From an uncultured virus (IMG/VR IMGVR_UViG_3300017774_008765) (taxonomy: Duplodnaviria > Heunggongvirae > Uroviricota > Caudoviricetes), in the IMG/VR virus record IMGVR_UViG_3300017774_008765: 20,000 nucleotides of DNA. One strand, written 5' to 3'. Shown here one piece after another: positions 429 to 17,100 of the stretch. The notes under the pieces are model-generated. The model saw only the letters and a list, made by a program, of their open reading frames with translations, was not told the DNA's origin and searched no databases. Within the stretch, counting starts at the first letter, position 1. Each line of letters starts with the position of its first letter. A program made the translations under genes and the position numbers.

Positions 429-1822
429 AGACGGAACATCGGCGTCCGCGGAGGACGCTTCTCTCCGCTGGAGAGGTTGTTCGGACGGCCGCCTCCCGGC
501 CCCGGCGGCGGGGCCTCCCCGTCCTGCCGGGACTTGTCCGCAAGGAACGCGCGAACGTCCACGTTGGACTGGAGCAGCGAGAAGTCCGCGCCCGGCACCG
601 CGTTGATGAGGAACGGGTTGAGCTGCGCCTCACGCATGCCGGGGAACGTCAGCATGACCGCACAGCGCCCCGTCGGCCCACGCCCACGGAAGCACCGCAT
701 GATCATGTCGGCGTCCTGGCCGATCGCGTCGGAGCCGGCCAGCTCCGCGAGATCGTCGCCCTGCGACTTGTTCGCTTCCCGGTTGGCCTGGGTGGTGCCC
801 AGCACCGGCACCTTCAGCGCGCGAGCCATCAGCTTGAGATCCTGGCTGATGTGCGCGATGTTCTTCCAGTCCGCCGTGCGGGTGTTCGTCCGACCGTCAC
901 GCATCAGGTAGAACGCGTCGCACACGACCAGATCCGCCCCGAACTTCTCGGCCTTGGCGGTCAGCGTGTCCACCGAGCCACCCTTCTTGTCGGTGTCCCC
1001 GATGAAGCACAGCGCCCGCTTCCGGGTGCCGTCCTGCGTCTGGTTCTCGATGTTCGTCAGCTCGTCGAGGATGTCGAAGAACTCGAGTTCCTTCGCCTGC
1101 GGCAGCTTCGCCGTGCGGAGCAGCTCGTAGTCCACCCCGCAGATGACCGACGCAGCGCGGCGAAGCATCGCCTCCCGGCTCATCTCTTTGGAGTAGACGA
1201 GCACGCGGCGGTTCTGCTCGTAGGCGTGGGCGGCGATGGCCGTCGCCACCCACGACTTCATGTTCTTCGGCCGACCGTAGAGCACGATCAGCTCCTCCGG
1301 CTGCATCCCACAGGTGGCCGTGTTCAGCGGCTCCCACGGGTAGGGGATGCCGGTGATGCCGCCGGCGATCTGCTTCGTCGCGTACTCCTGCCGCAGCAGT
1401 CCGGCCGCGTTGGAGATCAGGAGCCCGTCGTTGTCCGCCGAGGTCGCGTTCAGGTCCCGCAGCTTCGGCAGGTACGCCGAGAGCACCGCGAACGGGTCTT
1501 CCCCGGAGTTGAGGAGGTCCGTCATCTCCATCGTCGCCTGCTCCATCTCCACCCGCATGCGCGTGGAGAGGATGTCGTGGATCAGCGCGTCGACCGAGTT
1601 CCGGCTGGGCCGGTAGTCGAAGTTCGGGAAGTGCCGCCGCAAGCGGTCGGCGTCCGGCACCTCTCCCGGATGCGCAGGACTGTGGAACTGCTCCCACATC
1701 CACCGGAAGACCAGGCGGCCCTCCTCCGTCAGAAAAGACTCCGGCGTCAGCCCGCGCTTGCGGACCGCGCTGAAGTCACCGGTAGCAACCACGTTGCTGA
1801 TCAGTTCGAGTTCTGCGTTCAC
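425..1822 (-). CDS. Replicative DNA helicase, DnaB/SF4 family (465 aa)
   Basis: GITGIPYPWEPLN, Walker-A-like GRPKNMKS, H1a SKEMS, Walker B VVCD, ISQDLKLMARALKVPV, TQANRE and LAGSDAIGQDAD match DnaB motifs H1-H4. Confidence 0.93.
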   Translation of the reverse strand: MNAELELISNVVATGDFSAVRKRGLTPESFLTEEGRLVFRWMWEQFHSPAHPGEVPDADRLRRHFPNFDYRPSRNSVDALIHDILSTRMRVEMEQATMEMTDLLNSGEDPFAVLSAYLPKLRDLNATSADNDGLLISNAAGLLRQEYATKQIAGGITGIPYPWEPLNTATCGMQPEELIVLYGRPKNMKSWVATAIAAHAYEQNRRVLVYSKEMSREAMLRRAASVICGVDYELLRTAKLPQAKELEFFDILDELTNIENQTQDGTRKRALCFIGDTDKKGGSVDTLTAKAEKFGADLVVCDAFYLMRDGRTNTRTADWKNIAHISQDLKLMARALKVPVLGTTQANREANKSQGDDLAELAGSDAIGQDADMIMRCFRGRGPTGRCAVMLTFPGMREAQLNPFLINAVPGADFSLLQSNVDVRAFLADKSRQDGEAPPPGPGGGRPNNLSSGEKRPPRTPMFRL

Positions 1823-2098
1823 TCATAGCTCCCAGTCTGGTTCAGGGGCCCCCGGGCCTGTAGGGACGTTCGAACGCTCTTCCAGTCCCGCACCCGTGTG
1901 CAGTCCTGCTTCCACGGCCTCAAGGAAGGCGAGCGCTCGTTCCATTACGAGATCGTCCGCGAGCGGGGTCTCCCCCATCGCGAGCGGGCCGGTGAAGGCC
2001 TCGTTCGCGAGGTGGACAGTGTACCGCGCGCGCACGGTCACGAGTCCAGTGGGAAGACGCGTGATCATGACTTCGGTCGGTTCAATCGTCACTTTCAT
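1823..2098 (-). CDS. Hypothetical protein (91 aa)
   Basis: Fills the operon gap exactly. ATGA overlap with the upstream gene, and its stop abuts the helicase start. Confidence 0.7.
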   Translation of the reverse strand: MKVTIEPTEVMITRLPTGLVTVRARYTVHLANEAFTGPLAMGETPLADDLVMERALAFLEAVEAGLHTGAGLEERSNVPTGPGAPEPDWEL

Positions 2099-2430
2099 TT
2101 GCGGTGACTCGCGTCGTACGCGTCGCCCGCCATCCGGTGCGCGCCGGTGATCATCTCCTGCACGAGCATCGCGGCGACCTCGTAGGCCTCCCGGACGGTC
2201 GGCTCATCTTGCCGGCAGGCGAGGCTCACGGAGACGAACGCCCCGAAGGCGTTGCCGTAGTTGTTGTCCTTCATGTCCATCGACACTGTCACCCGAGCCG
2301 CTCCGGTCGCATCAAGCGACCGGAGGGCATCGGGAGGCAGGGCGATCTCTTCGGCAGAGAGGTTTCTCTCCTCCACCTTCTCCGGCTGTCCGGGAACCCG
2401 GATGGCCTGGCGAGATCGCCCGGGGATCAC
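2095..2430 (-). CDS. Hypothetical protein (111 aa)
   Basis: 4-nt start/stop overlaps at both ends and a protein-like composition (beta-strand then helix pattern). Confidence 0.75.
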   Translation of the reverse strand: MIPGRSRQAIRVPGQPEKVEERNLSAEEIALPPDALRSLDATGAARVTVSMDMKDNNYGNAFGAFVSVSLACRQDEPTVREAYEVAAMLVQEMITGAHRMAGDAYDASHRK

Positions 2431-2858
2431 TTCAGGTCCTTGGGCAGAGTGACGCGGGGCGTCATCTCGACCTTCTGGAGGTACTCCCCGTACACGGCGC
2501 GCAGCTCTCCGGGGAGCCGCTCCATCTGGTCGGCGCGGGCCTCGTAGTACAGCAGGCCGTACTCGACGAGCTGCTTGATGTCGCCGCGCTCCGTGGCGCG
2601 GGAGACCAGCGAGCCCACGTCCACCTTCGTGCTGGTGGGCACCTTCACGTCGAACTTCCGGCCGAGCAGGTCCACCGTGGAGCGGCCCTTGCGCAGCAGA
2701 TCCTCGACCTTCGTGCGGGTCTGCTCGGCCTCCCCGCGGAGCTCGTCGATGCGCGCGTACTCCTCCGGGTGGAGGGCCTTGAGCTCCGCGAAGATCGCGG
2801 CTTCTTCTTCCTTCAGGTTGACCAGTTCAGCGATGGCCTTGGCCAGTTCTTCGGTCAT
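2427..2858 (-). CDS. Hypothetical protein with N-terminal coiled coil (143 aa)
   Basis: Heptad-like E/L/K-rich N-terminus, strong GC3 codon bias and 4-nt overlaps with both neighbours. Confidence 0.8.
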   Translation of the reverse strand: MTEELAKAIAELVNLKEEEAAIFAELKALHPEEYARIDELRGEAEQTRTKVEDLLRKGRSTVDLLGRKFDVKVPTSTKVDVGSLVSRATERGDIKQLVEYGLLYYEARADQMERLPGELRAVYGEYLQKVEMTPRVTLPKDLK

Positions 2859-3613
2859 TTGTCGTAGGTCTCCGGACGGTGTGGAAAGCTGGATGCGAAC
2901 AAGTCGCGGTACTCCTCGTTCAACAGGGCAACGGCGTGCTTGAGGTCCTGGACCGTCTTGTACGTTTCGCCCTTCTTCTCAGCGACCAGCTGGTGATCGC
3001 CCTTCTTCAGCAAGTGACTCGGCGGGAGGAGCACCATCACCGGGTAGCGGGCCGAGCCGCCGTGCGGAGAGGGGACGACTACGTCGAGGATCTCACCCCG
3101 CTTGTCCATCGGAGAGATGCTCTTCCCCACGAGCGCGCTGGCCGCCGTCTTGCCGAATGCGAGCACGAGGAGCGGATCGACGGCGTAGATCGTCTCCATC
3201 AACCGCGTCCGGCAGTTGCCCAGTTCCGTCGAGGTCGGCGGCCGTCCTTCCGGCGTGCGGCACAGGACCGCGTTCGTCCAGAAGATGTGCCGGTCGAGGT
3301 AGCTGCGCAGGGCGTAGAAGTACTCGACGTACGCCTCATCGCTCTGCGCGCCCATCACGCGGATCTCCTCCATCTCTGGCGTCTTCGGCCAGACCATCGC
3401 CAGCATTTCCATCAGTAGCCGCCCCGAACGGCCGGCGAACGGCACGCCCTGGTGGTCTTCCTCTTCGCCTGGAACCTCCCCGATGATGAGGAGGTCGGCG
3501 CTCGTGCTGCCGGAGCCGAACACCACCTGGGACCGGCTCCGGCACAGGACCGGGCAGGCCTCGCACCGCGCGTAGGAGGTGAACAGGGCTTCGACCGCAG
3601 GCAGCCCCCTCAT
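2855..3613 (-). CDS. Uracil-DNA glycosylase, family-4-like (putative [4Fe-4S]), with atypical motif B
   Basis: CEAC...VVFGSG...IIGEVPGEEED..GVPFAGRSG...NAVLCRTP...C matches family 4 UDG motif A and the four cluster cysteines. The motif B position reads LPPSHLL instead of HP(A/S)xxL. Confidence 0.9.
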   Translation of the reverse strand: MRGLPAVEALFTSYARCEACPVLCRSRSQVVFGSGSTSADLLIIGEVPGEEEDHQGVPFAGRSGRLLMEMLAMVWPKTPEMEEIRVMGAQSDEAYVEYFYALRSYLDRHIFWTNAVLCRTPEGRPPTSTELGNCRTRLMETIYAVDPLLVLAFGKTAASALVGKSISPMDKRGEILDVVVPSPHGGSARYPVMVLLPPSHLLKKGDHQLVAEKKGETYKTVQDLKHAVALLNEEYRDLFASSFPHRPETYDK

Positions 3614-3948
3614 GCGCCGAACAGGCCGGGCAGGAGAATACTGCGCCGTGCCGTCATCATCTCGTAGGTGCGGATGAGATCCGCGTCGGTCTCTGCCGTG
3701 TAGTGCGCAGAGAGCGGAAGGTGCAGCCGCACCGGTCCCTGCGCGGGCAGGAGCGGCGCGGGCATGACCCCCACCGCCCCGCGGGCGGGGTCGGTCATCT
3801 GGAAGCGGAGCTCGATGGTGTCGACCAACACCAGCGTCTCCTTCGTCTTCTCGGCCAGAACCCCCACCAACGTCTTGCCCTGGTAGAACACGACGGTGAG
3901 GTCTTTCAGGTACGCGCCAGCGGGTTGCGGCGACGATTCGCGGTCCAT
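3610..3948 (-). CDS. Hypothetical 112-aa protein, possibly Sm/LSm-like fold
   Basis: Likely start is ATG 3948 with an AGGAG RBS. The sequence (VVFYQGKTLVGVL...LVLVDTIEL...YEMMTARRSILLPG) has an Sm1-like beta pattern. The longer 341-aa ORF call is a shadow extension. Confidence 0.7.
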   Translation of the reverse strand: MDRESSPQPAGAYLKDLTVVFYQGKTLVGVLAEKTKETLVLVDTIELRFQMTDPARGAVGVMPAPLLPAQGPVRLHLPLSAHYTAETDADLIRTYEMMTARRSILLPGLFGA

Positions 3949-5309
3949 GTAGTACTCCTGAAGGGAAACTTCTGCTGTTTCAAAAAGCCGAGGACACTGA
4001 ACGTCAGCCCGGCGGCTTCCGGGATGTTGCGATCGAGGAACAGGATCACTTCCGGCGTGCGCTTGCCGGGCGCGGCGCGCTGCACCCGCCCGATCGCCTG
4101 CCGAAGCTGGGGCGCCTCGGCGTAACCGTCTGCTGCCAGCGGTGTGAGTACAAAAAGCGAGTCCAGGTCCTTCCGGTTGTACGCCTCGGTGGCGACTCCG
4201 AACGTGGCGAAGACCAGCTTGCTGCTGTTGAGCTGCTTCAAGCGCTCCTTGCTCGGAGTCTCCCCGGTAATAAGCCCGCTTCCGGGGTACTGCTGGCTCC
4301 ACCAACGGACGTGCTCGACGACGTGACTCAGCGCGAAGACCGTACGCCCCGCCGCTATCGCTTCGTCGAGCCGAACCCTTATGGCGGCGTTCCGTTCTTC
4401 GTTGCGTCCGAGCCATGCGCGGAGGAGTCCGATGTGCCGTTCTCCACTGCGATCGGTGACCTCGCGCTCGGCCTTGTCGTCGATCGTCGTGTCCAGCTCG
4501 AGGACCTCGACCTCGGGGATCATCTCCTGCGCGTCGTCGCTGAAGAGGATTGGCCCGATGTGCGAGAGGAAGATTCCCTCGCTCCGGTCGATCCGCTTCG
4601 GAGTGGCGGTGAGCCCGAAACGGTTCCCCATGCACACGTCCGCACTCTTCACGTAGAACGAGGCGGACATGTGATGGACCTCGTCGAAGATCACCGTTCC
4701 GAAGCGGGTCGCGAAGTCCTCGGGAAGCTCCCCCGCTTCGGCGCGGCCCGCGAGGGTCTGCACCGTCGCCAGCACGACCTCGTGCTCGTAGTCCATCTTT
4801 CCGTCGCCGATGCGACCAATCTTCCCGTCGAGAAGGAAGTAGTTGTTCAGCTCGGACTCCCAGTTGTCCAGATGCGCCCCCTGCGGAGAGACGATGAGCG
4901 TCGCCTTGCCCGCGTGGGCCGCCTTGTAAAGCCCCATGATCGTCTTGCCCGCACCGCAGGCCAGATGGAGGATTCCATTCTCTGCCTTAGAGAACACCTC
5001 CCACGCGGGGACCTGCCGCTCACGCAGCTGGAACCCCGGACGGGGGCGCAGCGAGCTGCCGGGAAATTCCTTGGGGCGAAGATCCACCACGGGAATCCCC
5101 ATTTCCTCCTCGATCTGCGCCCGCGTCAGGAACGCGCGAGGCACCTCGATGTGGTTCGGGTGCTCGATGACCAGCACCCTCGGCTCGTTTGACCGGTCGA
5201 GACCGAAGGTCAGAGCCCCGCGAACGGGGCCCTCGGCGATGCGCGTCCTGGGGAGGTACAAGGACGCGGCAACGTATGCCTTGTCGGAGTCCAGGCGCGG
5301 AAACTTCAT
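3906..5309 (-). CDS. Superfamily 2 DEAD/DEAH-box helicase (XPB/Rad25/UvsW-like, 467 aa)
   Basis: Q motif LRERQ, Walker A ACGAGKT, DEVHH, motif III GLTATP, motif V-like TEAYN..DLD and motif VI QAIGRVQR. Confidence 0.93.
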   Translation of the reverse strand: MKFPRLDSDKAYVAASLYLPRTRIAEGPVRGALTFGLDRSNEPRVLVIEHPNHIEVPRAFLTRAQIEEEMGIPVVDLRPKEFPGSSLRPRPGFQLRERQVPAWEVFSKAENGILHLACGAGKTIMGLYKAAHAGKATLIVSPQGAHLDNWESELNNYFLLDGKIGRIGDGKMDYEHEVVLATVQTLAGRAEAGELPEDFATRFGTVIFDEVHHMSASFYVKSADVCMGNRFGLTATPKRIDRSEGIFLSHIGPILFSDDAQEMIPEVEVLELDTTIDDKAEREVTDRSGERHIGLLRAWLGRNEERNAAIRVRLDEAIAAGRTVFALSHVVEHVRWWSQQYPGSGLITGETPSKERLKQLNSSKLVFATFGVATEAYNRKDLDSLFVLTPLAADGYAEAPQLRQAIGRVQRAAPGKRTPEVILFLDRNIPEAAGLTFSVLGFLKQQKFPFRSTTWTANRRRNPLART

Positions 5310-5312
5310 GGG

Positions 5313-5792
5313 CTACCTCTGAAACGGATTTGGATACCGGCGGCGGGGAATGGACCGTACGCCAAACACCGCTTCCTGAAGGACGGCTTCTACGGCGCTG
5401 AGAAAGCCGTTCTGCGCAAGCGCGCCCATGAACGTATCGCCGTCCTGCACGGCAAGGCGGCTGGCATCCGGGGGCGGCGCGTAGACCTGCTGCGCGTAGG
5501 GGGGTTGCTGCGTCGAGTACGTCGGGCGGATGACCTGCGCGGTCGGTGTGCCGGTTGTGGCGATCGGCGGGGCATACGTGGGAACGGCGGCTGTGGGAGC
5601 CGTGACGTAGCCACGGCTGATCGCGTTCAGCTTCTGTTCGACGTGGTACCGACAGCTGCCCTTGACGGGGCAAACGCGGCACGTCGAATCCTCATCGCTA
5701 TACTGGCTCGGGTTCGAGTAGCATTCCGGCTTCGTGGCCACGGGCGCCGCGCTCTGGCCGAAATTCTTTCCATAGAGTCCGTCTGACGGCAA
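5313..5792 (-). CDS. Hypothetical protein with a 4-Cys metal-binding motif and P/T/Q-rich linker (159 aa); first gene of the replication operon
   Basis: TTG start with a GGAGG RBS. Motif CY-x13-CRVC-x5-C. Confidence 0.75.
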   Translation of the reverse strand: MPSDGLYGKNFGQSAAPVATKPECYSNPSQYSDEDSTCRVCPVKGSCRYHVEQKLNAISRGYVTAPTAAVPTYAPPIATTGTPTAQVIRPTYSTQQPPYAQQVYAPPPDASRLAVQDGDTFMGALAQNGFLSAVEAVLQEAVFGVRSIPRRRYPNPFQR

Positions 5793-5811
5793 CTTACCTC
5801 CGGTTGCCCCC

Positions 5812-5826
5812 TCTTATGTCGTAATC
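5812..5826 (-). promoter_or_regulatory. Conserved 15-nt motif GATTACGACATAAGA; candidate phage promoter, copy 1
   Basis: 13/15 identical to 11129-11143, same orientation, 19 nt upstream of the first gene of a minus-strand operon. Confidence 0.6.
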
Positions 5827-5865
5827 TCCCTCGTCCTCTCCCTCGTTCGGCGCGTTGCGAACGAG
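5825..5865. repeat. Direct repeat TCTCCCTCGT x2 (5825-5834, 5837-5846) overlapping a perfect 8-bp inverted repeat CTCGTTCG-N8-CGAACGAG (5842-5865)
   Basis: Read directly from the divergent intergenic region. Confidence 0.7.
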
Positions 5866-5871
5866 TATGAT
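5866..5871 (+). promoter_or_regulatory. Sigma70-like -10 hexamer TATGAT upstream of the virion operon
   Basis: 5/6 match to TATAAT in high-GC DNA, followed by an AGAGGA RBS and GTG at 5895. No clear -35 element. Confidence 0.4.
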
Positions 5872-5894
5872 AGGCGGAAAAAGAGGAACCATCC

Positions 5895-6506
5895 GTGAAC
5901 GTCTACGATACCCTCCGCGACCTCGAGGCCTGTTGGCACGAGCTGGACTCCTACGATCGACACGCCTACGCGGTGACCGCCGTGAAGGAGGCGAGCGCGC
6001 AAGGGGCGGACGTGCCGGCGGAGATTTCCCGCTATGGCGGAGAAACCCTCAGCCCGCTCTTCGCCGAGCGGATGCGGGATCGCCAGTCCTTCGCGGCCGA
6101 CGAAGCGCTCGCCAGCGCGTACGCGCGGCTGGGCAAGGTCGCCTCGGCCCTGCCGACGGAAGAAGTCGTTCGCGTCCTGTTCACGCTCGACGATGTCGCG
6201 GGCCTCATCCCTCGCTACGGCCAGCGGATCCCCGATCCGCACCTCTGTGTCTACGAGGTGCAGAAGGAGGCGAACGGCTGGTCGTGGATCCACGGAGGCC
6301 TGATGGTCAACGAGGACCAGCTGCGTCGGTTCGCGTTGATCCCGAACCGGAAGATCCTCGAGGACCTGTTCCCAGAGGAGCTCGTCACGCAGTTCCGCGC
6401 TGATCCGCTTCCCACCTTCGAGTCGTTGCCCGAGGAGCTCAAGATCCTTCTGGCGCGGATGGCGACCCAGTCGGGCACCCGCAACGACGGCGGCCTCCGG
6501 GCATGA
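5895..6506 (+). CDS. Hypothetical protein (203 aa), probably virion/head-associated
   Basis: GTG start with RBS and GC3 bias. First gene of the portal operon. Contains repeated K-x-A motifs (VKEAS, GKVAS, QKEAN). Confidence 0.8.
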   Translation: MNVYDTLRDLEACWHELDSYDRHAYAVTAVKEASAQGADVPAEISRYGGETLSPLFAERMRDRQSFAADEALASAYARLGKVASALPTEEVVRVLFTLDDVAGLIPRYGQRIPDPHLCVYEVQKEANGWSWIHGGLMVNEDQLRRFALIPNRKILEDLFPEELVTQFRADPLPTFESLPEELKILLARMATQSGTRNDGGLRA

Positions 6507-7297
6507 TCTCCCTAAGCGACGAGAACCTCTCGCCCGTCGTGCTGTTCTTCTTCCTGACGAAGAAGTACGGACACGAGTGGATGAGCTGGGCGCCGGATCC
6601 CCTGCGGCACACGCTGGAGACGGACTTCAAGACGACCGTCGCGAAGAAGAATCTCAACCGAGCCCTCGCCATGGCCGTGCTCGCCACACGCGACACGTTC
6701 TTCGACAGCTGGGAGGCCTTCCACTTCCTCGTTCCCGCGCTCATCGTGGGCGTGCCCTCCGCCGACACGATGCAGGAACACACGGTCGGCGAGATGATGG
6801 CCGCCGTGGATGACGCGCTCTACCTGCGCACGCACCTCGACACGCTCGTACCCGTGCCGAAGTTCGCGGAGACGGTGGCGCGCTACGTGGCGGCGCACGC
6901 GAAGAACCAGGGGGTCTGGTATCTCCCGGAGCCGCTCGCCTTCGCCGCGGACTACTCGGCGGGGAAGAAGTACCGCTGCAAGGACTGCGGGAACGAGGGC
7001 GAAGTCCTGTTCGACGATGGGCTCTGCGACACCTGCGTCCACCGCTTCGACACCGAAACCCTCGGTGCGTGGCGGCCGGATCCCGAGGCGATGGCCCGCG
7101 GCCTGGGACGGAACACGGAGCTCTTCTTCGAGAACCCGCCGCAGGGAGCGCAGGCCCGCTTTCTCTTGCTCACGCGGGATCCCGCGCAGTACACGGGCTC
7201 GCAGGATGACGTCTGCGCCGCGAAGCTGGTAGAGGCCCTCGACTACGTCAACGCGCGGCGCATGCTGCGAGACCGCGCCCTGAAGGGGATCTCATGA
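6503..7297 (+). CDS. Hypothetical protein with a CxxC-x12-CxxC zinc ribbon (264 aa)
   Basis: YRCKDCGNEGEVLFDDGLCDTC; ATGA overlaps at both ends. Confidence 0.85.
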   Translation: MISLSDENLSPVVLFFFLTKKYGHEWMSWAPDPLRHTLETDFKTTVAKKNLNRALAMAVLATRDTFFDSWEAFHFLVPALIVGVPSADTMQEHTVGEMMAAVDDALYLRTHLDTLVPVPKFAETVARYVAAHAKNQGVWYLPEPLAFAADYSAGKKYRCKDCGNEGEVLFDDGLCDTCVHRFDTETLGAWRPDPEAMARGLGRNTELFFENPPQGAQARFLLLTRDPAQYTGSQDDVCAAKLVEALDYVNARRMLRDRALKGIS

Positions 7298-8037
7298 GCC
7301 TGCACCCGCACGCTCTCCGCGCTTTCGCGGACGAGCTGAGCAAGATCGCAAACACCTCGGGCGTTTCCGAGATCGGCCGGGGGCGCGAGTTCCTTGATGC
7401 GGTTCAGGACACGCCCCGCTCCGCCGGCCGGCTGTTGAACCCGATGACGATAAAGAACGAGGTCCAGGACATCTGGAAGGGGACCTCGAACCAGTCGTCC
7501 AACAACCGGGCCCTCCTCGCCGACGAGGTCTCCTCCGCCAACGAGGCGTTGGCGAAGGCCGGCAAGGGCGGGAAGTACGTGGACGACGTGCTGCACAACC
7601 AGACCGCCGTGGGCAAGCTTCGCCGGGGTGGCTGGCTCGCGAACTTCGGGAAGTACGAGGGCGGCAGCACGTTCCTGAAGGCGCGCAATGCGGTTGCCCG
7701 TGCTCTTCCGGGACAGCGCACGGTCGGCGTGGGGTTCACCGCGCTGGGCGTGCACTCCGATCTCCAGAAGCGGGACGCGACGGGCCGCGAACGCGGCGGC
7801 GCCGAACGCCTGCTCGGCGCGGGCGGAAACCTCGTGGGCGGCGTCGCCGGACTGAACCCGGTCGCGACGCGGCGCATGCTCCCCGGAAGCGGTCAGCGCT
7901 TCTTCGGCGGGGGCGCGGGATCTCTCGTCGGCGGCATGGCCACGCAGATGGCGCTCGGCGGCGCTGGGCGGTTCGCCGGCCGCAAGATCGATGAGATGCG
8001 CGGCTTCAAGCCCACCCCGCCCCCGGAGACCCCGTGA
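7294..8037 (+). CDS. Gly-rich basic protein with glycine-zipper-like segments and an N-terminal AFADELSKIA motif (247 aa); candidate internal virion protein
   Basis: LLGAGGNLVGGVAG and GGGAGSLVGGMATQMALGGAG segments; coupled to the portal by a GTGA overlap. Confidence 0.75.
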   Translation: MSLHPHALRAFADELSKIANTSGVSEIGRGREFLDAVQDTPRSAGRLLNPMTIKNEVQDIWKGTSNQSSNNRALLADEVSSANEALAKAGKGGKYVDDVLHNQTAVGKLRRGGWLANFGKYEGGSTFLKARNAVARALPGQRTVGVGFTALGVHSDLQKRDATGRERGGAERLLGAGGNLVGGVAGLNPVATRRMLPGSGQRFFGGGAGSLVGGMATQMALGGAGRFAGRKIDEMRGFKPTPPPETP

Positions 8038-10148
8038 ACTTTGTCGGAACCAACGTCGATAGCGGGGATCGGTTCAACACGAAGCTCTCCGGTGCCGGGG
8101 GGCGGAGCTTCGGCGTTCGCTATCCGTCGCCGTTCTTCGATGTCGCGCAGCAGTACCTGCCCGGCGACATCCACCAGCTCCACCACTGGTGCCGCTTCTA
8201 CTTCCTGACCAACCCGATCATCAACGTCGCGGTCAGCAAGATGGCGGAGTACCCCGTCACGCCAATCATCTTCGACACCGACGACCCGGAGAAGAAGAAG
8301 CTCTACCAGGGACTGGAGGAGCAGCTCAACATGCGCCAGTTCCAGGTCGAGATCGGCCTGGACCACTTCGCGTACGGCTCGGCCTTCGTGTCGATCTACT
8401 ACCCGTTCGTGAAGTACCTCGTCTGCAAGGGCTGCAAGGAGCGCTACCGCGCCGACGCGAACCGTTCGCTCTACAAGTGGCGCAACATGCGCTTCCGGCT
8501 CAAGTGCCCGAAGTGCAAGACGGACGACTACGCCGAGGAGCGGGACGTCTACATCCGTTCGATCCGGGACGTGCGCCTGGTGCGCTGGAACCCCGAGAAC
8601 ATCGACATCAAGTACAACGAGATCACGGGGGAGAGCCGGTACTTCTACCGAATCCCGAAACCCATCCTGAACGACATCACGATGGGGGATCCCGACACGA
8701 TCGAGAAGCTCTCGATCGAGTTCCTCGACGCCGCGCGCCGGCGGAAGGCGCTCCGGTTCTCGCCGGACAACATCTTCCACCTCAAGCGTCCGACGATCGC
8801 GCAGAAGGATCAGGGCTGGGGGATGCCGCTGATCTACCCGCTCCTGAAGGACGCGTTCTACCTGGCCGTGCTCAAGAAGGCCCAGGAGAGCATCGCGATG
8901 GAGCACATCGTGCCCCTGCGCATGATCTTCCCCGGCCCGTCAACCGGAGGCAACGACTCCCCCTACGGCAGCTACAACCTGTCGAACTGGAAGTCGAAGG
9001 TCGAAGCCGAGCTTTCGTTGTGGAAGCGGGACAACAACTACATCCCCATCCTGCCCGTGAACATCGGCTTCCAGCAGTTCGGCGGCGACGCACGGGCGCT
9101 GATGCTCCACTCGGAGCTGCGGCTGGTCGCCGAACAGATGCTCGTCGGCTGCGGCATCCCCATCGAGTTCGTCTTCGGCGGGCTCTCCTGGTCGGGCAGC
9201 AACACGTCGCTGCGCGCGCTCGAGAACATGTTCCTCGGCTACAACCGGCAGCGCCGGCGGCTGGTGAGCGACTTCATCTTCGGCAACATCGCCGCCTACA
9301 TGCGGTGGCCGAAGGTCGAGTGCCGGTTTGACCGCTTCAAGATGGCGGACGACCTCCAGCGCTCCATGTTCTACCTCCAGCTCAACCAGGCGCTCAAGAT
9401 CAGCGACAAGCGCCTGCACGAGGAGCTGGGAGAGGACACGGAGACCGAGGTGAACCGGATGCGCGACGAGATGAAGATCCAGCTCGGCGTGCAGCGGACG
9501 ATGCAGATGGCCACGGCCGACATCCAGGGCGAGGCGTCGCTCCGCACGTCGCGCTACCAGATGAAGACGCAGGAGCTCCAGAGCAAGGCGCAGATGGAGC
9601 AGCAGGCGCAGATGCAGCAGGCCCAGATGCAGATGCAGCAGCAGCAGCAGGCCCAGGGGGGAGACCCCACCCAGGCCCAGCCGCCGCCCGCCGATCCGAA
9701 CGCCCCGCAAGCGCAAGCGGGGGCGCCAGATCCGAACCAGCAGCAGCAGCCTGCTCCGTCCGCCGACGGACAGGCTGCCGCCCAGCAGGTGCCGGGGATG
9801 CCCGAGGGGGCAACGGTGTACGCCGAGAACGGGCAGCAGGCACCCGGGCAGGGCCTTCCCGTCGCCATGGCGGGGATGGCCTCGCCGCTGAACCAGAACA
9901 GCGGGGGGATCGACCTGCGCTACCTGGCGACCCGCGCCAAGGCGTTCCTCGACACCATCGCCGAGGAGCAGGGCGAGATGGCGGTGCAGCAGAACCTCAT
10001 GCGGATGCGGGCCGAGAACCCGGCGCTCTACCAGCTGGTGAACCAGCTAAGGAACGAGGGCGGGTCCAAGGTCAATCCCATGGACGCCGCCTCCGCGCCC
10101 GTACCGGCGGGCGGCTCGCGCCGCACCGCCGGGCGGACCATCGGGTAA
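8034..10148 (+). CDS. Phage portal protein with an inserted Zn ribbon and Q/P/A-rich C-terminal tail (704 aa)
   Basis: Portal-type succession: TNPIINVAVSKMAEYP, IGLDHFAYGSAFV, WNPENIDI, NIFHLKRP...GWGMPLI, ++ CGIPIEFVFGG and helical wing/crown segments. Insert CKGC...CPKC. Confidence 0.8.
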   Translation: MNFVGTNVDSGDRFNTKLSGAGGRSFGVRYPSPFFDVAQQYLPGDIHQLHHWCRFYFLTNPIINVAVSKMAEYPVTPIIFDTDDPEKKKLYQGLEEQLNMRQFQVEIGLDHFAYGSAFVSIYYPFVKYLVCKGCKERYRADANRSLYKWRNMRFRLKCPKCKTDDYAEERDVYIRSIRDVRLVRWNPENIDIKYNEITGESRYFYRIPKPILNDITMGDPDTIEKLSIEFLDAARRRKALRFSPDNIFHLKRPTIAQKDQGWGMPLIYPLLKDAFYLAVLKKAQESIAMEHIVPLRMIFPGPSTGGNDSPYGSYNLSNWKSKVEAELSLWKRDNNYIPILPVNIGFQQFGGDARALMLHSELRLVAEQMLVGCGIPIEFVFGGLSWSGSNTSLRALENMFLGYNRQRRRLVSDFIFGNIAAYMRWPKVECRFDRFKMADDLQRSMFYLQLNQALKISDKRLHEELGEDTETEVNRMRDEMKIQLGVQRTMQMATADIQGEASLRTSRYQMKTQELQSKAQMEQQAQMQQAQMQMQQQQQAQGGDPTQAQPPPADPNAPQAQAGAPDPNQQQQPAPSADGQAAAQQVPGMPEGATVYAENGQQAPGQGLPVAMAGMASPLNQNSGGIDLRYLATRAKAFLDTIAEEQGEMAVQQNLMRMRAENPALYQLVNQLRNEGGSKVNPMDAASAPVPAGGSRRTAGRTIG
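9565..9850 (+). repeat. Low-complexity CAG-rich (Q/M/A/P) coding tract in the portal tail
   Basis: QELQSKAQMEQQAQMQQAQMQMQQQQQAQGG...QQQQP. Confidence 0.8.
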
Positions 10149-10559
10149 TCAGCCGGCGACGCTGCCGCCCAGCAGCGTCGGATCCACGTGCGGCTCGAGG
10201 CACCCGAGGTGGTAGCCCACCTCGGGTTCCCCGTTCGGCATGGGGTGTGTCTCCAGCCCGTACGGCTGCACGGAGTGAAGGGACACCATCACCACATGCT
10301 GGCCGAACTCGTAGACCTCGTTGCACCACGCGCACGTTCCGCCGGTCGTCATCCCTACACCAAAGAGGCCGCGGGATGCCTGCCCGACGAAGCAGTCGTG
10401 GTGGTGGAACAGCTCATGGGAGCCATCCGCGAAGGAGTCCTCGTGCAGGCACGGTACGCCGCGAAGGCGTCCCTGTCCCAGCCGGAAGGCGCCCAGGTTG
10501 ACGGCGTAGTCCCCGACGTAAAGCGCCTTTGCGCACCATCCGCAGGCGTAGTCGCTCAT
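10149..10559 (-). CDS. Protein with two tandem CxxC...HxxC zinc-binding modules (136 aa)
   Basis: ATG 10559 with a GGAGG RBS and ATGA overlap. CGWC...HHDC and CAWC...HLGC suggest an internal duplication. Confidence 0.75.
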   Translation of the reverse strand: MSDYACGWCAKALYVGDYAVNLGAFRLGQGRLRGVPCLHEDSFADGSHELFHHHDCFVGQASRGLFGVGMTTGGTCAWCNEVYEFGQHVVMVSLHSVQPYGLETHPMPNGEPEVGYHLGCLEPHVDPTLLGGSVAG

Positions 10560-10849
10560 GGAACCTCCAGGGCAAGGACGATGGAGTAGCCCCCGCAGCT
10601 GTCGCACGCGCCGTCCGTCCAGTACGGAAGAGAGCGCCCGTCTCGCACACAGCCCGTACAGAGCCAGCGTCCTCCCTCCGGCCGGTAGGCGCAGTTGCGA
10701 CAGTCTATGTACGCGCAGCTGCCCACTCCGGCGGCTTCCCGACGCGCCGGGCAGTAGGCGAGCTGCGCCCCTTCTGTAAACCCCGCCTCCGAGAGAGGGA
10801 TCTCCCCAGGGGGGAGCAGCCCGCCCAGTCCCTCGTGCAGACGGGACAT
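10556..10849 (-). CDS. Cys-rich putative zinc-finger protein (97 aa, 8 Cys)
   Basis: YCP...SC, CRNC, CTGC, CDSC. The start is placed at ATG 10849 (uncertain) because the upstream part of the ORF call overlaps two better small ORFs. Confidence 0.7.
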   Translation of the reverse strand: MSRLHEGLGGLLPPGEIPLSEAGFTEGAQLAYCPARREAAGVGSCAYIDCRNCAYRPEGGRWLCTGCVRDGRSLPYWTDGACDSCGGYSIVLALEVP

Positions 10850-10866
10850 GAGCGGGCTGCGCCGTC

Positions 10867-10947
10867 TTACCACCTGAAACTTCCGAAGAAGTCCTTCAGG
10901 AACCGCGAGAAGCCGAGCAGGAACGCGAAGCCGAAGAGCGCGCCCAT
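10867..10947 (-). CDS. 26-aa hydrophobic/amphipathic peptide MGALFGFAFLLGFSRFLKDFFGSFRW
   Basis: Manual translation. TGATG coupling to the upstream small ORF; all eight Phe codons are TTC. Confidence 0.55.
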   Translation of the reverse strand: MGALFGFAFLLGFSRFLKDFFGSFRW

Positions 10948-11087
10948 CAGCGGTCATCCTCGTCGGCGTCGGTGCCGCTGCCACTGCTGCTTCCGAAAGC
11001 GCTGTCGTCGTCGTTGGAGTAGCCGAGCGCCTCATCGAGGGATGAGGCGAAATCTACGAGGGAGGAAGCGTTGTTGTCGTCGTCCAT
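10947..11087 (-). CDS. 46-aa highly acidic D/S-rich protein MDDDNNASSLVDFASSLDEALGYSNDDDSAFGSSSGSGTDADEDDR
   Basis: Manual translation. GGAGA RBS upstream of the ATG; first gene after motif copy 2. Confidence 0.6.
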   Translation of the reverse strand: MDDDNNASSLVDFASSLDEALGYSNDDDSAFGSSSGSGTDADEDDR

Positions 11088-11128
11088 GTGATTCTCCGGG
11101 AAATACACGCTGGTGTTCACGTGCAATT

Positions 11129-11143
11129 TCTTATGCCGTTATC
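11129..11143 (-). promoter_or_regulatory. Conserved 15-nt motif GATAACGGCATAAGA; candidate phage promoter, copy 2
   Basis: 13/15 identical to 5812-5826, 41 nt upstream of the ATG at 11087. Confidence 0.6.
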
Positions 11144-11145
11144 CG

Positions 11146-11154
11146 TGTTAGCCT
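11146..11154 (+). promoter_or_regulatory. Extended -10-like element TG-T-TAGCCT upstream of the RNAP gene
   Basis: Fits TGnTAnnnT and ends 7 nt before the ATG at 11162, which has no Shine-Dalgarno sequence. Confidence 0.35.
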
Positions 11155-11161
11155 TTGCCCC

Positions 11162-14100
11162 ATGCCGGACATCAATCCCGAGGCCGAGTTCGAGAGCGTC
11201 AAGCAGAAGGCGCTCGATGCGATCCGTCAGCAGTTCCCCATGTCCGGCAAGCTCAACCGCCTGGAGCTCGTGGGACTGGAGGCGAAGGACGCCCTGCACG
11301 TCGACGACGTGACGTCGCAGTACAAGAAGAAGGTCGAGGGCGGAACGTGGTCCGTTCCCGTGCGCGCCCAGCTCAAGCTGGTGGACGTGCAGACCGGGAA
11401 GACGCTCGACTCCGGAACGGTCACCCTGGCCCAGATCCCCAAGATTACGCGGCGCTACACCTACATCGTCGAGGGACACGAGCGGCAGCACGACTCGCTC
11501 TTCCTCCTCAAGCCTGGGATCTACCACCGCGTCGCGGACAACGGCGACATCCAAGCGAAGTGGAACCTCCAGAAGGGGCGTAACTTCGACCTCCTGATCG
11601 ACCGGGCCACCGGCCGTATCACGATGAAGATCAAGACGGCGGAGGTCCCTCTCTACTCGGTGCTCAAGGCCCTGAACGTGGCCGATGGGGACATCGAGCA
11701 GGCGCTGGGCCGGCAGGTCTTCGAGAAGAACCGGGAGCGCACCAGTTCGAAGGACCTGGTGAAGATCCCGAAGACCCTCTCCGACGGGCAGGACGCCAAG
11801 CGCACCGCGGCGGCCCTCCACCCCGACGAGGCCGCGACGAAGGTGCGCGATCTGTTCGCCCAGACCGCGACCACGCGGCCGGATGGAGACACGCACTCGA
11901 CGCTCGACGTCGCGTTCACCTCGGTGACGGGCCCGGCGCTCCTCGAGTCGGCGAAGCGCATCCTGCAAATCTCTCGCGGAGAGAAGGAACCCGACGACCG
12001 CCAGTCGCTTGGCGCCAAGGACATCCACGGCACCGCGGAGTTCGTCGAGCGGTTCATCACCCGCGCGAAGATGGACGTGACGCGCAAGATCGTGGCGCGC
12101 ATCGACAAGTCCGCCAAGCTCACGGACCTGCCGGTCAACAACCTCTACACCTCGCCCATCAACGGGACGTTCCGCAACGCGCAGTTCCCCGAGCAGCACA
12201 ACCCGCTCGGGTTCTTGTCCGGTCACCTGCGCACGACGATCGTCGGGGCCGACTACGGCGGGGTGAAGGGCGAGGACGTGAACCTCTCCGAGGACAAGCT
12301 CATCAACCCGTCGCACATCGGGTTCCTCGACCCGGTACAGACGCCCGAGTCGGCGGTGACGGGCATCTCGCTCCACCTCCCCATCGGCGCGCGCAAGAAG
12401 GGCAAGCAGCTCGTCACGCGGGTCTGGGACGTGAAGAAGAAGAGCTTCGTCGAGGTCGCGCCGCAGCAGCTCGAGCGCGCCGTCGTGGCGTACCCTGACC
12501 AGGTGGAGTGGAAGAACGGGCAGCCCTCCCCGCGCGAGCCGGAGGTCGTCGTCTACGACAAGGACCGCACGACCGGCCGCCGGAAGTGGGCGGAGGTCGA
12601 CTACGTTCTCCCGTCGGCGAAGGCGCTGTTCTCGTTCTCGGCCAACCTCGTCCCGTTCCTGTCCACCAACTCCGGCGGCCGCGCGATGATGGCGGCCAAG
12701 CAGCAGGAGCAGGCGATCGCGCTCAAGCACCGCGAGGCGCCGCTCGTCCAGACGAAGACGGACGGCACCGCCACCTTCCAGCAGCTCGTCGGGCAGTTCG
12801 CATCGCACAGCTCGCCGGTGGACGGCACCGTCACCAAGGTCGAGGCGGACGCGATCTTCGTGAAGGGAGCGGACGGCACCACGAAGAAGGTGCCGATCTA
12901 CGACCACTTCCCGCTCAACGGCGGGAAGGACATGATGCACGCCACGCCCCTGGTCAAGCCGGGCGACACGGTGAAGAAAGGCCAGACGCTCGCGGACACG
13001 AACTACTCGAAGGACGGCCAGTTCGCGGTCGGAACGAACCTGCGCGTCGCGTACACTCCGTTCCACGGCCTCACGTTCGAGGACTCGATCATCATCTCGC
13101 AGTCCGCGGCCGAGAAGCTGACCTCCGAGCACCTGCACGAGAACTCGGTCACGCTCTACCCGGGCATGTCGCTCAACAAGCGGCTCTGGCAGAACTACGC
13201 CATGCCCGAGCAGACGAACCCGCAGCGCATGGGCAAGCTCGACGAGGACGGCATCATCAAGCAGGGCCAGAAGGTCGAGCACGGGGACGTGCTGGTGGCC
13301 GTGCTCGCGGAGACGCGCCACAATCCGAACGACGAGGCGGCGAGCATCTCGAAGAAGCTCATCCGTCCCTACGACACCCGTCACTCGGTTCTCTGGGAGC
13401 ACGACTACCCCGGCGTCGTGGCCAAGGTCGTCCGCGCGGGCAAGACGATCCGCGTCTACGTGCGAACCGAGGAGCCGATGACCGTCGGCGACAAGCTGAC
13501 GGGGCGCTACGGCAACAAGGGCATCGTCGGGACGATCTTGCCCGACCACGAAATGCCGCACGACACGGACGGCAAGCCGGTCGAGGTCATCCTCGGCCCC
13601 GCCGGCGTCCCGAGCCGCATGAACGTCGGGCAGCTGCTTGAGACGACCGCCGCGAAGATCGCCAAGAAGACCGGCCAGAACTACGTCGTCGACAACTTCC
13701 AGCCGGGCGTGGACTACACCCAGAAGGTCAAGGACGACCTGAAGAAGCACGGGCTCTCGGACACCGAGGTCCTGCTCGACCCGAAGACGAAGCGCCCGAT
13801 CGGCGAGATCCTCACCGGGTTCCAGTACCTCCACAAGCTCCACCACCAGGTGGACAAGAAGATGACCGCGCGCTCGCACGGCGGCGCGTACGACGCCAAC
13901 GGCGAACCGCCGAGCGGCTCGGGGATCCCCGGCGGCGGGCAGACCCTCGACCAGCTTGCGACCTACGCGATGCTCGCGCACGGGGCCTACGCGAACCTGC
14001 GCGAGGCGCAGACGTGGAAGTCCGACCAGGATCAGGCGGACGTGTGGATCGCGCTCCAGCAGGGGCGTCCTCTGCCGGACCCGAAGCCGAACCGCAGCAT

Positions 14101-17100
14101 GGGCAAGCTCATCGGGTACATGCGCGCGATGGGCATCCACATGGAGAAGAAGGGCGACAAGTACGCCCTCGCCCCGCTCACCGACCACCAGGTCAAGACG
14201 TTCAGCAACGGGGCGATCGACTTCCCCAGCAAGACGCTCACCGCCAAGGGGGCGCGTACCCTCGAAGACGTGGGCGGCCTGTTCGATCCAAAGAAGACCG
14301 GCGGCATGGGCGGGAAGTACTGGACGCACATCCCGCTCGCCGAGCGGATGCCGAACCCCGTGTTCGAGCGGGCGATCCAGGCGCTCACCGGGATCGACAA
14401 GAAGACCTACGAGCAGATCACCGGCGGCGCCGCGGCGCCGGAGGCGGGGAAGACCGGCTTCCAGCGGATCGTCCACGCGCTCGAGCAGGTCGACGTGGAG
14501 AAGGAGATCAAGACGCTCGACCAGCAGCTGCCGAAGCTCACCGGCAGCCGGCTGGATCGCGCGTACCGCCGCATGCGCTACCTCAAGGCGCTCACGAAGC
14601 TCGGCGTGAAGCCGGTGGACGCGTACACCACGCAGAACCTCCCGGTGCTCCCGCCGGAGATGCGGCGCGTCATGGTCGGCATCGACGGCAGCCAGACGAT
14701 CGACGACCTCAACGTGCTGTACAAATCGGTCGGGCTGCTCAACGAGCAGGTGAAGAAGGCGGACCCCAAGCTCCCGCCCTCTGAGAAGCAGAAGCTCCAG
14801 GCCGACCTGTACCACTCGGTGCGGCAGCTGCGCATCACCGGCCTTGAGATGGGGCAGGGCACCAAGGAGCGCCACCACCGAGGCCTCATGGAGATGATGG
14901 AGGGGACGAAGACCTCGTTCTTCCAGTCCTCCGTCATGTACCGCCGGCAGGATCTCTCCGGGCGCTCGACGATCATCACCGCCCCGCACCTCGGACTGGA
15001 CGAGGTCGGCGTTCCGCAGCCGATCGCGTTCGAGATGTTCAAGCCGTTCATCGTCAAGGAGCTCGCGCAGTCGCACGGCAAGACGCCGGCCGAGGCGAAG
15101 AAGCTCGTGGACAAGAAGGACAAGCTCGCGCTCGAGGTCCTGCACAAGGTCACCGCCGACCGTCCCGTGCTGCTCAAGCGCGATCCCGCGCTCCACAAGT
15201 TCTCGATCATGGGGTTCAAGGTCCGTGTCACCGACGGCAAGGCCATCGGGCTGCACCCAATGGTGTGCGCCGGGTTCAACGCCGACCACGACGGGGACAC
15301 GATGGCGCTCTACGTCCCGCTCGGAAAGGAAGCGGTGGACGAGGCGCACGGCATGCTGCCCTCAAAGAACCTCTTCTCGCCGACCACCGGGCGCATCATG
15401 CCGGTGCCGGTCCAGGACGGCGTCCTCGGGCTGTACCACGCGACGAAGTGGGGCGAGAAGAAGAACGTAAAGGTCACGTCCCGCGACGAGGTGCTCAAGC
15501 TCTACAAGGACGGGAAGCTCCACATCTCGGACGTCATCACGTTGGACGGGAAAGAGACCACGCCGGGGCGCCTGCTCCTGGCGGGTGAGTTGCCCAAGGA
15601 GATGCAGAACAACGACAAGCTCCTGCACGACAAGGACTTCCGCATCGCCAAGGGCACGTTGAACACGTTCATGTCGGAGATCGGCAAGAAGCACCAACAG
15701 GACTACGCGCGCGTGGCCGACGCGTGGAAGAACCACGGCAACCGCATCGCCTACGAGAGCGGCTCGAGCTTCTCCCTCCACGACTTCCACGACGCCAAGC
15801 CGATGCGCGACGCAATCCTCAAGAAGTACGAGGCGGAAGAGAAGGCGGTGCGCGCGTCGAAGCTCTCTGACAAAGAGAAGAACGACAAGATCGTCGAGAT
15901 CTACAGCAAGGCGGGGCAGGAGATCGAGGAGAAGGGAAAGGCCCACTACAACAACTCCGACAAGAACCGGCTCTACGATTGGATCGCCGCCGGCGCGCGC
16001 GGCGACTGGAACCAGTTCCGCCAGATGACCTACGGACCGCTGCTCGTCGCCGACCCGAAGAACCGCGCGGTGCCGGTGCCGATCACCAAGTCCTACGCGG
16101 AGGGCCTGCCCATCTCGCAGTACTGGACCTCGATGCACGGTGCCCGAAAAGGGGCGATCGACCGCTCCGCCGGAACGGCCGAGCCCGGCGCGCTCACCAA
16201 GGTCATCATCAACACCGTCATCGACCACCAGATCTCCGCCGAGGACTGCCACACCACGAAGGGCGCGCACCTCTCGCTCGACGACAAGGACGTGCACGAC
16301 CGCTACCTCGCGCAGCCCGTCCACATCACCGGCGGCAAGGACGTGCCCGCGGGCACGTTGTTGACCGCGCCGGAGATCACCCACCTCAAGGCGGCGAAGA
16401 TCACGCAGGTCGTCGTCCGTTCTCCGCTGCACTGCGCGCAGTCCAAGGGCGTCTGCGCGCGCTGCTACGGCTTGAACGAGAACGGCAAGCTCTACCACAC
16501 CGGCACGAACGTCGGCGTCATCGCCGGACAGGCGCTCGGCGAGCCGGTCACCCAGCTGGCGATGCGGACCTTCCACACCGGCGGCACCGTCGGATCCCAG
16601 AAGGGAACCGGCTACGAGGCCGACGCGTTCGAGCGCGTGAAGCAGCTCTTCAAGGTCCCGGAGAAGCTGCCCGGCGCCGCGACGATCGCCATGAAGGCCG
16701 GCACGATCACCAAGGTGGAGGCGGACAAGGCGCGCGGCGGGCACGTCGTCCACGTCGAGGACCACGCCCACCACGTCCTCGCGGACCGTCCGCTGCTCGA
16801 CCACATCAAGCCCGGCCTGAAGGTCGAGGCCGGCCACGCGCTCTCGCAGGGGCCGATCAACCCGCACCACCTCCTCGAGGCGACGAAGAACCTCAACATC
16901 GTCCGCAAGTTCATGACCGACGAGGCGCTCCGCTACTACCCCTCCGGGACGCGGCGGCGGAACGTCGAGACGGTCGTGAAGGCGATGACGAACGTCACCA
17001 AGATCGACCACGCGCCGACGGACAGCCACTTTGCCCGTGGCCAGCTCGCCGCGCTCTCCGAGGTCGAGCACTACAACCTCGAGGCGAAGAAGAAGGGGCA

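Follow-up and report, generated by a model that had tools for sequence, protein, structure and literature searches.

Organization of the window

The stretch of DNA considered here, which we refer to as the window, comprises 20,000 nucleotides (nt) from an uncultured virus of the Caudoviricetes (IMG/VR record IMGVR_UViG_3300017774_008765). Our subject is a short motif with the core CATAAG that lies on the minus strand at the heads of a replication operon and of a cassette of small genes, and that appears to be a phage promoter element. The gene content is that of a tailed phage, with replication genes on the minus strand and a portal gene, an RNA polymerase (RNAP) gene, and a weakly matched baseplate-type gene on the plus strand. 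The replication operon (3..5792, minus strand) starts with a gene at 5313-5792 and continues with a superfamily 2 (SF2) helicase (3906-5309), uracil-DNA glycosylase (2855-3613), and DnaB (425-1822), with primase next at the window edge; these assignments come from Pfam and PHROG matches and from synteny in relatives. By gene calls, a plus-strand operon runs from a GTG at 5895 through the portal gene (8034..10148, plus strand), whose product matches PHROG portal proteins with E 3e-4 and the portal of Salmonella phage Arash with E 1e-77. The cassette (10149..11087, minus strand) holds small open reading frames (ORFs) that are partly Cys-rich with repeated CxxC pairs and have no family match.

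The gene at 11162..17341 (plus strand) encodes a single-chain beta-beta' RNAP of 2059 amino acids (Pfam Rpb2_6, E 4e-63; Rpb1_2, E 5e-30) with the catalytic motif NADHDGD at residue 1373. This motif is NADFDGD in seven of eight relatives checked and GADFDGD in one, and it is AADYDGD in Arash and Vibrio phage D69. RNAPs 49-53% identical to that of the window were found at eight viral loci and six metagenome loci, several of which are duplicates, and the gene order of the window is common to all eight viral loci. Among cultured phages, the best scores go to Vibrio phages D69, D181, and D148 and to Salmonella phage Arash (OQ632216), whose gp206 and gp216 are 32% and 28% identical to the window's RNAP. 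The remaining top matches are bacterial-type rpoB/rpoC sequence in unannotated records. At L005, L050, and L054 the RNAP matches extend 1.5-2.5 kb beyond the length of the gene, which suggests introns, inteins, or inserted genes.

Two minus-strand sites share a conserved core

The two sites, GATTACGACATAAGA at 5826-5812 and GATAACGGCATAAGA at 11143-11129 (both minus strand), are identical at 13 of 15 positions and sit in the only two minus-to-plus divergent gaps of the window, as judged from script-made gene calls. The first ends 19 nt before a TTG start codon at 5792, which has the Shine-Dalgarno (SD) sequence GGAGGT at 5801-5796, and the second 41 nt before an ATG at 11087, which has GGAG at 11097-11094. 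A reading made from the sequence alone (the sequence-only reading) had reported these positions, identities, spacings, and gaps, and all of them were confirmed. It had also treated the 15-mer as the unit; the pair is real, but only seven of its positions, G-14 and CATAAG (numbered with the C of CATAAG at -12), are conserved in relatives.

We found no further match in the window at three or fewer mismatches, in a circular test where a mean of 0.34 was expected and two were reached in 10 of 200 shuffles. In a fairer test, 15 of 2000 dinucleotide shuffles of both gaps gave a 15-mer pair with at least 13 identities in either orientation, so the pair by itself is only modestly beyond chance. More informative is that CATAAG occurs on the minus strand in both gaps in all eight viral loci. 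Counting seven distinct relatives (the eight loci minus L003, a near-copy of L002), G-14 and the six core bases were found at both gaps in 7 of 7, as compared with 0-4 of 7 for the other eight positions; because the sites were located by their core, the count of seven shows presence in the gap and nothing more. The full 15-mer was rejected as a unit since, at up to three mismatches, it occurred at six places in the eight loci and never at the two orthologous gaps. Comparison of these loci indicates that the conserved unit is G-N-CATAAG and not the 15-mer.

At the replication operon the core is G-A-CATAAG (5813..5820, minus strand; G-14 at 5820, CATAAG at 5818-5813, corresponding to -12 to -7). 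Upstream is an A-rich region, AGAGG (5835..5839, minus strand), with A-31, a base conserved in the sites of relatives, at 5837. From the geometry in relatives, the transcript is predicted to start at about 5806-5805, within 1-2 nt, so that a short segment (5790..5806, minus strand) would contain the start, the SD, and the TTG. At the small-gene cassette the core is G-G-CATAAG (11130..11137, minus strand; G-14 at 11137, CATAAG at 11135-11130) with an A-tract, AAAGG (11152..11156, minus strand), that places A-31 at 11154 in the same conserved geometry. This second core is found in the seven relatives and also in L049/L050 and L054. A matrix built from the relatives ranked 5818 first and 11135 second in the window, and the flanks alone placed both within the top 0.7%. 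Both sites carry A-31, AT at -19/-18, and G-14.

Two extra copies of CATAAG occur in the window, both within genes, at 4383 (sense) and 18207 (antisense). The former belongs to a G-C-CATAAG with A-31 inside the SF2 helicase gene (4378..4385, minus strand) that ranks third by the matrix and is a possible internal promoter. A sigma-70 scan of the window returned no sites, and TTGACA is absent from the window. The second site also contains GG-N11-GC, which resembles a sigma-54 promoter; we rejected it because its spacing is wrong for that consensus and it is not conserved.

CATAAG precedes non-virion genes throughout related genomes

Genome-wide counts were taken from relatives and not from the window's own genome, with L052, L054, and L050 kept outside them. 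CATAAG is strongly biased to one strand, with counts of 37:0 in G004, 29:1 in G003, 26:1 in G002, 7:0 in G005, 16:5 in G001, and 5:0 in G006; in the first five the backwards control word is near-balanced. Genes in the relatives were called with our own hexamer-model caller instead of Prodigal and some small genes were missed. By these calls, the copies are intergenic in 36 of 37 cases in G004, 27 of 30 in G003, 20 of 27 in G002, 6 of 7 in G005, and 8 of 21 in G001, and CATAAG is the top intergenic hexamer in all three genomes ranked. Within 100 nt upstream of start codons it was found at 71 of 444 minus-strand (non-virion) genes in related records versus 1 of 331 plus-strand (virion) genes. 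In G004 the minus strand encodes polymerase A, primase, DnaB, RecA, gyrase B, ThyX, and many small genes, and the plus strand encodes portal, RNAP, terminase, and capsid. At 89645-89657 of G001 (L033), the palindrome CATAAG-T-CTTATG forms two back-to-back copies. Because the plus-strand copy faces the gene for the terminase large subunit, the orientation of the motif follows the gene.

The sequence-only reading had proposed a phage-specific promoter and had expected many copies upstream of non-structural genes, placed non-randomly. The strand bias, the intergenic location, and the difference between 71 of 444 and 1 of 331 genes bear this out in the relatives. An opposing view would be that the word is no promoter but a product of chance or codon bias, a terminator, or a protein-binding box. 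The modest result for the window pair (15 of 2000 shuffles) would suit this idea, but it is contradicted by the strand bias, the intergenic placement, the gene-following orientation of the G001 pair, and the phasing with predicted starts and SD sequences described below, and we give it next to no credence. Judged by its sequence pattern and placement, CATAAG forms the core of a genuine promoter signal, which the clade places before its non-virion genes.

CATAAG also heads long ORF-free stretches at 26844 in G004, 120292 in G003, and 96862 in G002. A T-loop-like word comes first, and these stretches probably encode tRNA or other non-coding RNA. Four freshwater metatranscriptomes yielded short, low-depth contigs of this phage, mostly at least 99% alike, across genes of both strands; these carry no information on transcript starts or strand, may include DNA, and were not used as evidence.

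The element has a bipartite, sigma-type layout

To describe the architecture we used 89 intergenic sites from G002-G005, for which flank positions played no part in selection. The most conserved flanking bases are A-31 (72 of 89) and G-14 (76), followed by G+1 (66) and T-1 (56), with A/T enriched at -19/-18. The upstream element lies at a fixed distance as an A-tract from -33 to -29, with AA[AG] starts peaking at -33 to -30. Of the 89 intergenic sites, 69 have a pyrimidine-purine (YR) step at -1/+1, as compared with 10 of 38 genic copies; the step is also present in 33 of the 48 sites without an adjacent SD. Among the 44 sites with a clear SD, 29 have its first base exactly at the predicted +1, and in 5 the SD starts earlier. 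The hexamer itself varies little: compared with 89 copies of CATAAG, the intergenic minus-strand variants are TATAAG (3), GATAAG (3), CATAAA (3), CATAAC (2), and CATAAT (0). These sites lack the RpoD-type combination of T-12, A-11, and T-7 with TTGACA or TGn, and have C-12 and G-7 instead.

On these base frequencies the layout is bipartite and of the sigma type, with an A-tract at -33 to -29, G-14, CATAAG at -12 to -7, and a YR step at -1/+1. Such spacing is the layout of sigma-type promoters, and A-31 and G-14 at a fixed distance fit sigma regions 4 and 3. The idea that the element is compact and unlike a -35/-10 pair was therefore not upheld.

Since the spacing is that of sigma-70 promoters and G-14 occupies the extended -10 position, host holoenzyme might read the element as a variant -10; the sigma involved could be the primary one or, for example, sigma-28/WhiG. 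The TATAAG form that occurs in Arash (see below) matches five of the six positions of TATAAT, and ATAA with an upstream A-tract resembles the sigma-28 promoter TAAAGTTT-n11-GCCGATAA (PMC2859248). However, G-7 is near-invariant (CATAAT 0 versus CATAAG 89), whereas sigma-70 holds T-7 in a pocket (PMC7598289). TAAA occurs in 8 of the 89 upstream regions, the sigma-28 consensus TAAA-N14-16-GCCGATAA occurs 0 times in five sequences (G002-G005 and the window), and GATAAG accounts for only three intergenic sites. In addition, the ATAAG core is found in phages of Salmonella, of Vibrio, and of an unknown high-GC host, and it tracks a phage sigma factor. We consider it improbable that a host holoenzyme is the reader.

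In 32 of the 89 sites (G002-G004, for example L010), TTAG occurs 6-39 nt upstream of the core, mostly after a GC-rich hairpin and with only 2-4 T. We rejected TTAG as a promoter element or a reversed late promoter. Because its distance varies and a GC-rich hairpin mostly precedes it, we read it as a terminator tail, and the hairpin-TTAG probably serves the phage RNAP as a type of terminator.

Virion genes carry host-type signals

A different class of signal is found on the virion strand. The pattern G.TA...T, chosen by eye and then tested in relatives, occurs at 39 of 122 plus-strand gene heads (shuffle mean 14.6, maximum 23) and at 21 of 188 minus-strand heads. The longer form TG.TA...T occurs at 15 of 122 plus-strand heads (shuffle mean 3.3) and at 1 of 188 minus-strand heads. 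An unbiased ranking of gapped words before plus-strand genes gave no clear late word.

In the window, the host-type extended -10 TGTTAGCCT (11146..11154, plus strand) lies 7 nt before the ATG of the RNAP gene. With so short a distance and no SD, this gene is probably leaderless. L004 and L049 have a comparable arrangement, which is weaker in L001 and L008 and was not seen in L002, L005, L007, or L054. The sequence overlaps the -31 A-tract of the opposite-strand CATAAG promoter, and its last T is the complement of A-31, so the two promoters would be expected to compete. The other divergent gap holds a -10-like TATGAT (5866..5871, plus strand) upstream of the plus-strand operon, where it may have a similar role, and TATGTT is present in the same gap in several relatives. 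From these patterns we infer that virion genes, the RNAP gene included, are expressed from host-type extended -10 promoters.

A minus-strand gene of G004 (L015:18003-18734) with homologues in G001, G002, G003, and G005 encodes an N-terminal MerR-like helix-turn-helix and is a candidate late-gene activator. Elsewhere on the plus strand of the window, the ORF at 18570-20000 has a conserved N-terminal part of about 180 amino acids and then a low-complexity region that contains PVTTA repeats.

Relatives encode a sigma-70-family protein

A search with Pfam Sigma70_r2 found nothing in the five records G001-G005, and a sigma factor was recognized only through region 3 and through Arash. P0001, a 295-amino-acid plus-strand protein of G004, matches Pfam Sigma70_r3 with E 1e-4, which is below cut-off, in a scan that covered 120 of the 221 called genes. 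With Arash gp10 it shares 31% identity (E 2e-21); a similar block of plus-strand genes surrounds both, and orthologues are present in G003 and G001. The protein collection contains 21 P0001 homologues; weak matches to NCBIfam FliA/WhiG and SigBFG, below cut-offs, were obtained for 19-20 of 22 homologues. A sequence search of the PDB with P0001 gave no matches. The structural model of P0001 (predicted local distance difference test (pLDDT) 78) gave 62 Foldseek matches at E<=0.001, and the 49 top matches listed are all sigma factors or RNAP-sigma complexes. The template modelling scores are low owing to domain movement. As judged from sequence and predicted fold, P0001 is a sigma-70-family protein with sigma2-sigma3-sigma4.

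We also predicted the complex of P0001 with a 671-amino-acid fragment of the G004 RNAP. The score was 0.70, as compared with 0.00 for the best of three controls, with contact agreement of at least 88% and partner pLDDT of at least 77. The mark used is reached by 116 of 157 solved pairs and by 2 of 215 mismatched pairs. In the model, what we assign as sigma region 2 lies on the clamp helices and region 4 lies near the flap tip. Because holoenzymes are already solved structures, the prediction shows likeness to them and still allows binding to host core; such likeness may be the source of the passing score.

The phage sigma might read the motif on host core RNAP, with the phage RNAP used otherwise, for example for late genes. 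Phages that encode a sigma but no RNAP are thought to borrow host core (PMC13282480, PMC7598289), and complex prediction cannot separate phage core from host core. Weighing against this, the RNAP gene lies among virion genes, and RNAP is the top protein of Arash virions with gp10 alongside. Late genes carry the host-type TG.TA...T, which leaves the phage RNAP with no other obvious promoter class in the clade, and in the model its flap tip and clamp helices accept sigma. We regard the use of host core as unlikely.

A second, degenerate sigma-like gene encodes P0023 in G003 (L024:18260-19321, minus strand; 353 amino acids) and has a 58% identical homologue in G004. The N-terminal half of P0023 resembles the phage sigma (hidden Markov model E 6e-7; hhalign 79%, E 1.6e-5). 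The gene is itself headed by CATAAG, and P0023 has no match among cultured phages, Arash included. By this resemblance P0023 is a candidate second sigma or decoy. Together with the fact that the motif heads replication genes besides small accessory genes, this could make the motif a middle promoter, recognized not by the injected enzyme but by freshly synthesized enzyme or a second sigma-like protein. Both the CATAAG in front of P0023 and the lack of a match among cultured phages speak against this, and no other promoter class was found before minus-strand genes (TG.TA...T at 1 of 188 heads). We consider a middle promoter highly improbable.

The motif and its putative reader in Arash and Vibrio phages

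Among 50,697 phage records, full-length orthologues of gp10 were found in four: Arash and Vibrio phages D69, D181, and D148. All four share with the window's clade a related RNAP (32%/28%), portal, terminase, and capsid protein, one-stranded virion-type genes, and a sigma of the gp10 family. In Arash and D69, the two of these phages that were counted, G-N-YATAAG lies on the strand opposite the virion genes, and counts of GNTATAAG (G-N-TATAAG) favor that strand by 34:2 in Arash and 39:9 in D69. Of the 22 Arash sites within the first 100 kb, 19 have a YR step at -1/+1. By comparison, GNYATAAG shows no such bias in RNAP phages that gp10 does not match (YerA41 12:14, RHph_TM30 21:21, RP13 22:14, IME392 9:11, Carin-5 10:10), where it is below controls. 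Arash and the Vibrio phages differ from the window's clade in having the RNAP split over two genes, T-12, a weaker upstream A element, and a second sigma, gp196. Neither gp196 nor the annotated D69 sigma has a match in the gene sets of G001-G005.

In the Arash virion proteome (PMC10585845, Table 2), gp206 has the most spectra (3516), gp216 has 1210, and gp10 has 467; gp196 is absent from that table. The word 'promoter' does not appear in the main text of that paper (PMC10585845).

The sequence-only reading had named the fused RNAP alone as the reader, and recognition of a compact word by polymerase without sigma has some precedent. Early promoters of the phiKZ type are AT-rich words of about 10 nt near -10 (PMC7598289), in phages with no recognizable sigma (PMC7824862). 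But A-31 and G-14 lie at a fixed distance here, relatives encode a conserved sigma-70-family protein, and its orthologue is carried in Arash virions. This part of the earlier proposal was not supported, and we judge it very unlikely.

Two further observations concern Arash. GGTATAAG (L047:11588-11595, plus strand) immediately precedes gp9-gp10, an arrangement by which the sigma may promote expression of its own gene; in G004, CATAAG is absent from the plus strand. A CTAAAATA-like word, noted by eye before several virion-strand genes of Arash and D69 (L045, L046), may be a target of gp196.

A model for early transcription

We think it probable that G-N-CATAAG is an early promoter read by a virion-borne phage RNAP together with a phage sigma, and not by the polymerase alone. 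The motif would be the core, from -14 to -7, of a bipartite promoter with an A-tract near -31, W-W at -19/-18, and a start about 7 nt after the hexamer, and would drive non-virion genes, that is, accessory genes and the replication operon. Its reader would be a holoenzyme encoded by the phage, in which the single-chain beta-beta' RNAP is joined by a sigma-70-family factor belonging to the gp10 family of Arash. The two proteins would be late products of host-type promoters that are packaged in the virion and then injected. Because they would arrive with the virion, the first genes could be transcribed without host RNAP. Virion genes, including that for RNAP, would be expressed from host-type extended -10 promoters, and in the divergent gaps the phage-type and host-type promoters would stand back to back, overlapping at 11146-11154. 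In the window the RNAP gene lies among virion genes; RNAP and gp10 in virion preparations have been published for Arash only.

Several points weigh against this model. Transcript starts, the reader of the motif, and the timing are all predictions. At both window sites -1/+1 is G/C and lacks a YR step, so that starts in the window may be shifted by one base; at the replication operon a pyrimidine-purine step occurs one base later than predicted. No sigma gene was seen in the window, so that its presence in this phage is presumed; sigma matches were absent from G002 and G005, which are partial records, an alpha C-terminal domain was found in none of four genomes, and P0023 provides a second candidate factor. 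Among the relatives, G001 is weaker, both in its intergenic share (8 of 21) and in its plus-strand copy heading terminase, and the AT-richer G007 has a count of only 18:6 with a control of 10:14. In Arash, sites often read TGnTATAAG (T-15 in 14 of 29), which is near the host extended -10, and the A-31 element is weak, with A in 11 of 29 sites at -31 and in 15-16 of 29 at -32, -30, and -29. Lastly, metabolic enzymes are numerous among the 116 proteins of the Arash proteome, and its authors allow for carry-over (PMC10585845).

A bolder form of the model, which we put forward tentatively and would not call probable, is that Arash-like phages inject a self-sufficient two-protein holoenzyme. It would consist of an alpha-less beta-beta' chain and a genuine sigma-70-family factor that has come to accept G instead of T in its -7 pocket, would read only G-N-(C/T)ATAAG, and would stop at hairpin-TTAG, with overlapping late promoters serving as a built-in switch. 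If so, this would be a two-protein, sigma-programmable transcription system of the multisubunit type that is orthogonal to host RNAP. With a single-chain RNAP, one sigma, and an 8-nt core, promoter melting at a site with G-7 could be studied in a system of unusual simplicity, which would also be a candidate orthogonal expression tool. The model is directly testable because Arash is cultured. The motif also allows non-virion transcription units to be annotated across the clade.

Comparison with known systems

We found no description of this promoter in the open-access literature; relevant material might still exist in subscription papers or in the supplementary files of the Arash and mReC papers. 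Sigma-70 extended -10 promoters (TGnTATAAT) have the same spacing, with G-14, A-11, the -7 position, a YR start, and an upstream element near -31. The phage motif differs in having C-12 and G-7 in place of T-12 and T-7 and an A-tract upstream, with no TTGACA in the window. Sigma-28 (FliA/WhiG) promoters share ATAA in the -10 and an A-rich upstream region, and the phage sigma has weak FliA/WhiG matches (PMC2859248 for the consensus). By contrast, the phage motif has C or T and not G before ATAA and an invariant G after it, TAAA is infrequent upstream, and the full sigma-28 consensus is absent.

The mReC phages (PMC7481178) are also metagenomic tailed phages with recognizable beta and beta' and an NADxDGD motif. 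They differ in capsid (PF07068) and terminase (PF03237); the G004 capsid homologue has no Pfam match and its terminase belongs to PF05876. The words 'sigma' and 'promoter' are absent from the main text of the mReC paper (PMC7481178). We call the clade Arash-like because its capsid and terminase are not those that define mReC phages.

The division of labor proposed here resembles the strategy of N4 and crAss-like phages, in which a virion RNAP would act early and host RNAP late. N4 uses hairpin promoters and leaves its late stage to host RNAP, and crAss-like phages likewise use a virion RNAP early and host RNAP late. The N4 enzyme differs in being a single-subunit, T7-like polymerase (PMC7824862).

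The early promoters of phiKZ and AR9 are similar in that a motif near -10 precedes early operons and is credited to a virion-packed double-barrel RNAP (PMC7598289). Those phages have RNAPs of at least five chains, a second, non-virion RNAP, and no recognizable sigma homologue (PMC13282480, PMC7824862). More generally, reviews describe RNAP-encoding giant phages as having no recognizable sigma and sigma-encoding phages as borrowing host RNAP (PMC13282480, PMC7824862, PMC7598289), and one from 2020 notes that a purified jumbo-phage virion RNAP had not yet been achieved. Compared with phiKZ and AR9, the clade of the window has one RNAP chain, a recognizable sigma-70-family protein, a bipartite promoter, and host-type late signals. 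Judging from its gene content, it seems to combine an RNAP with a sigma, and the motif would supply the missing third part beside them, a promoter with predicted start sites.

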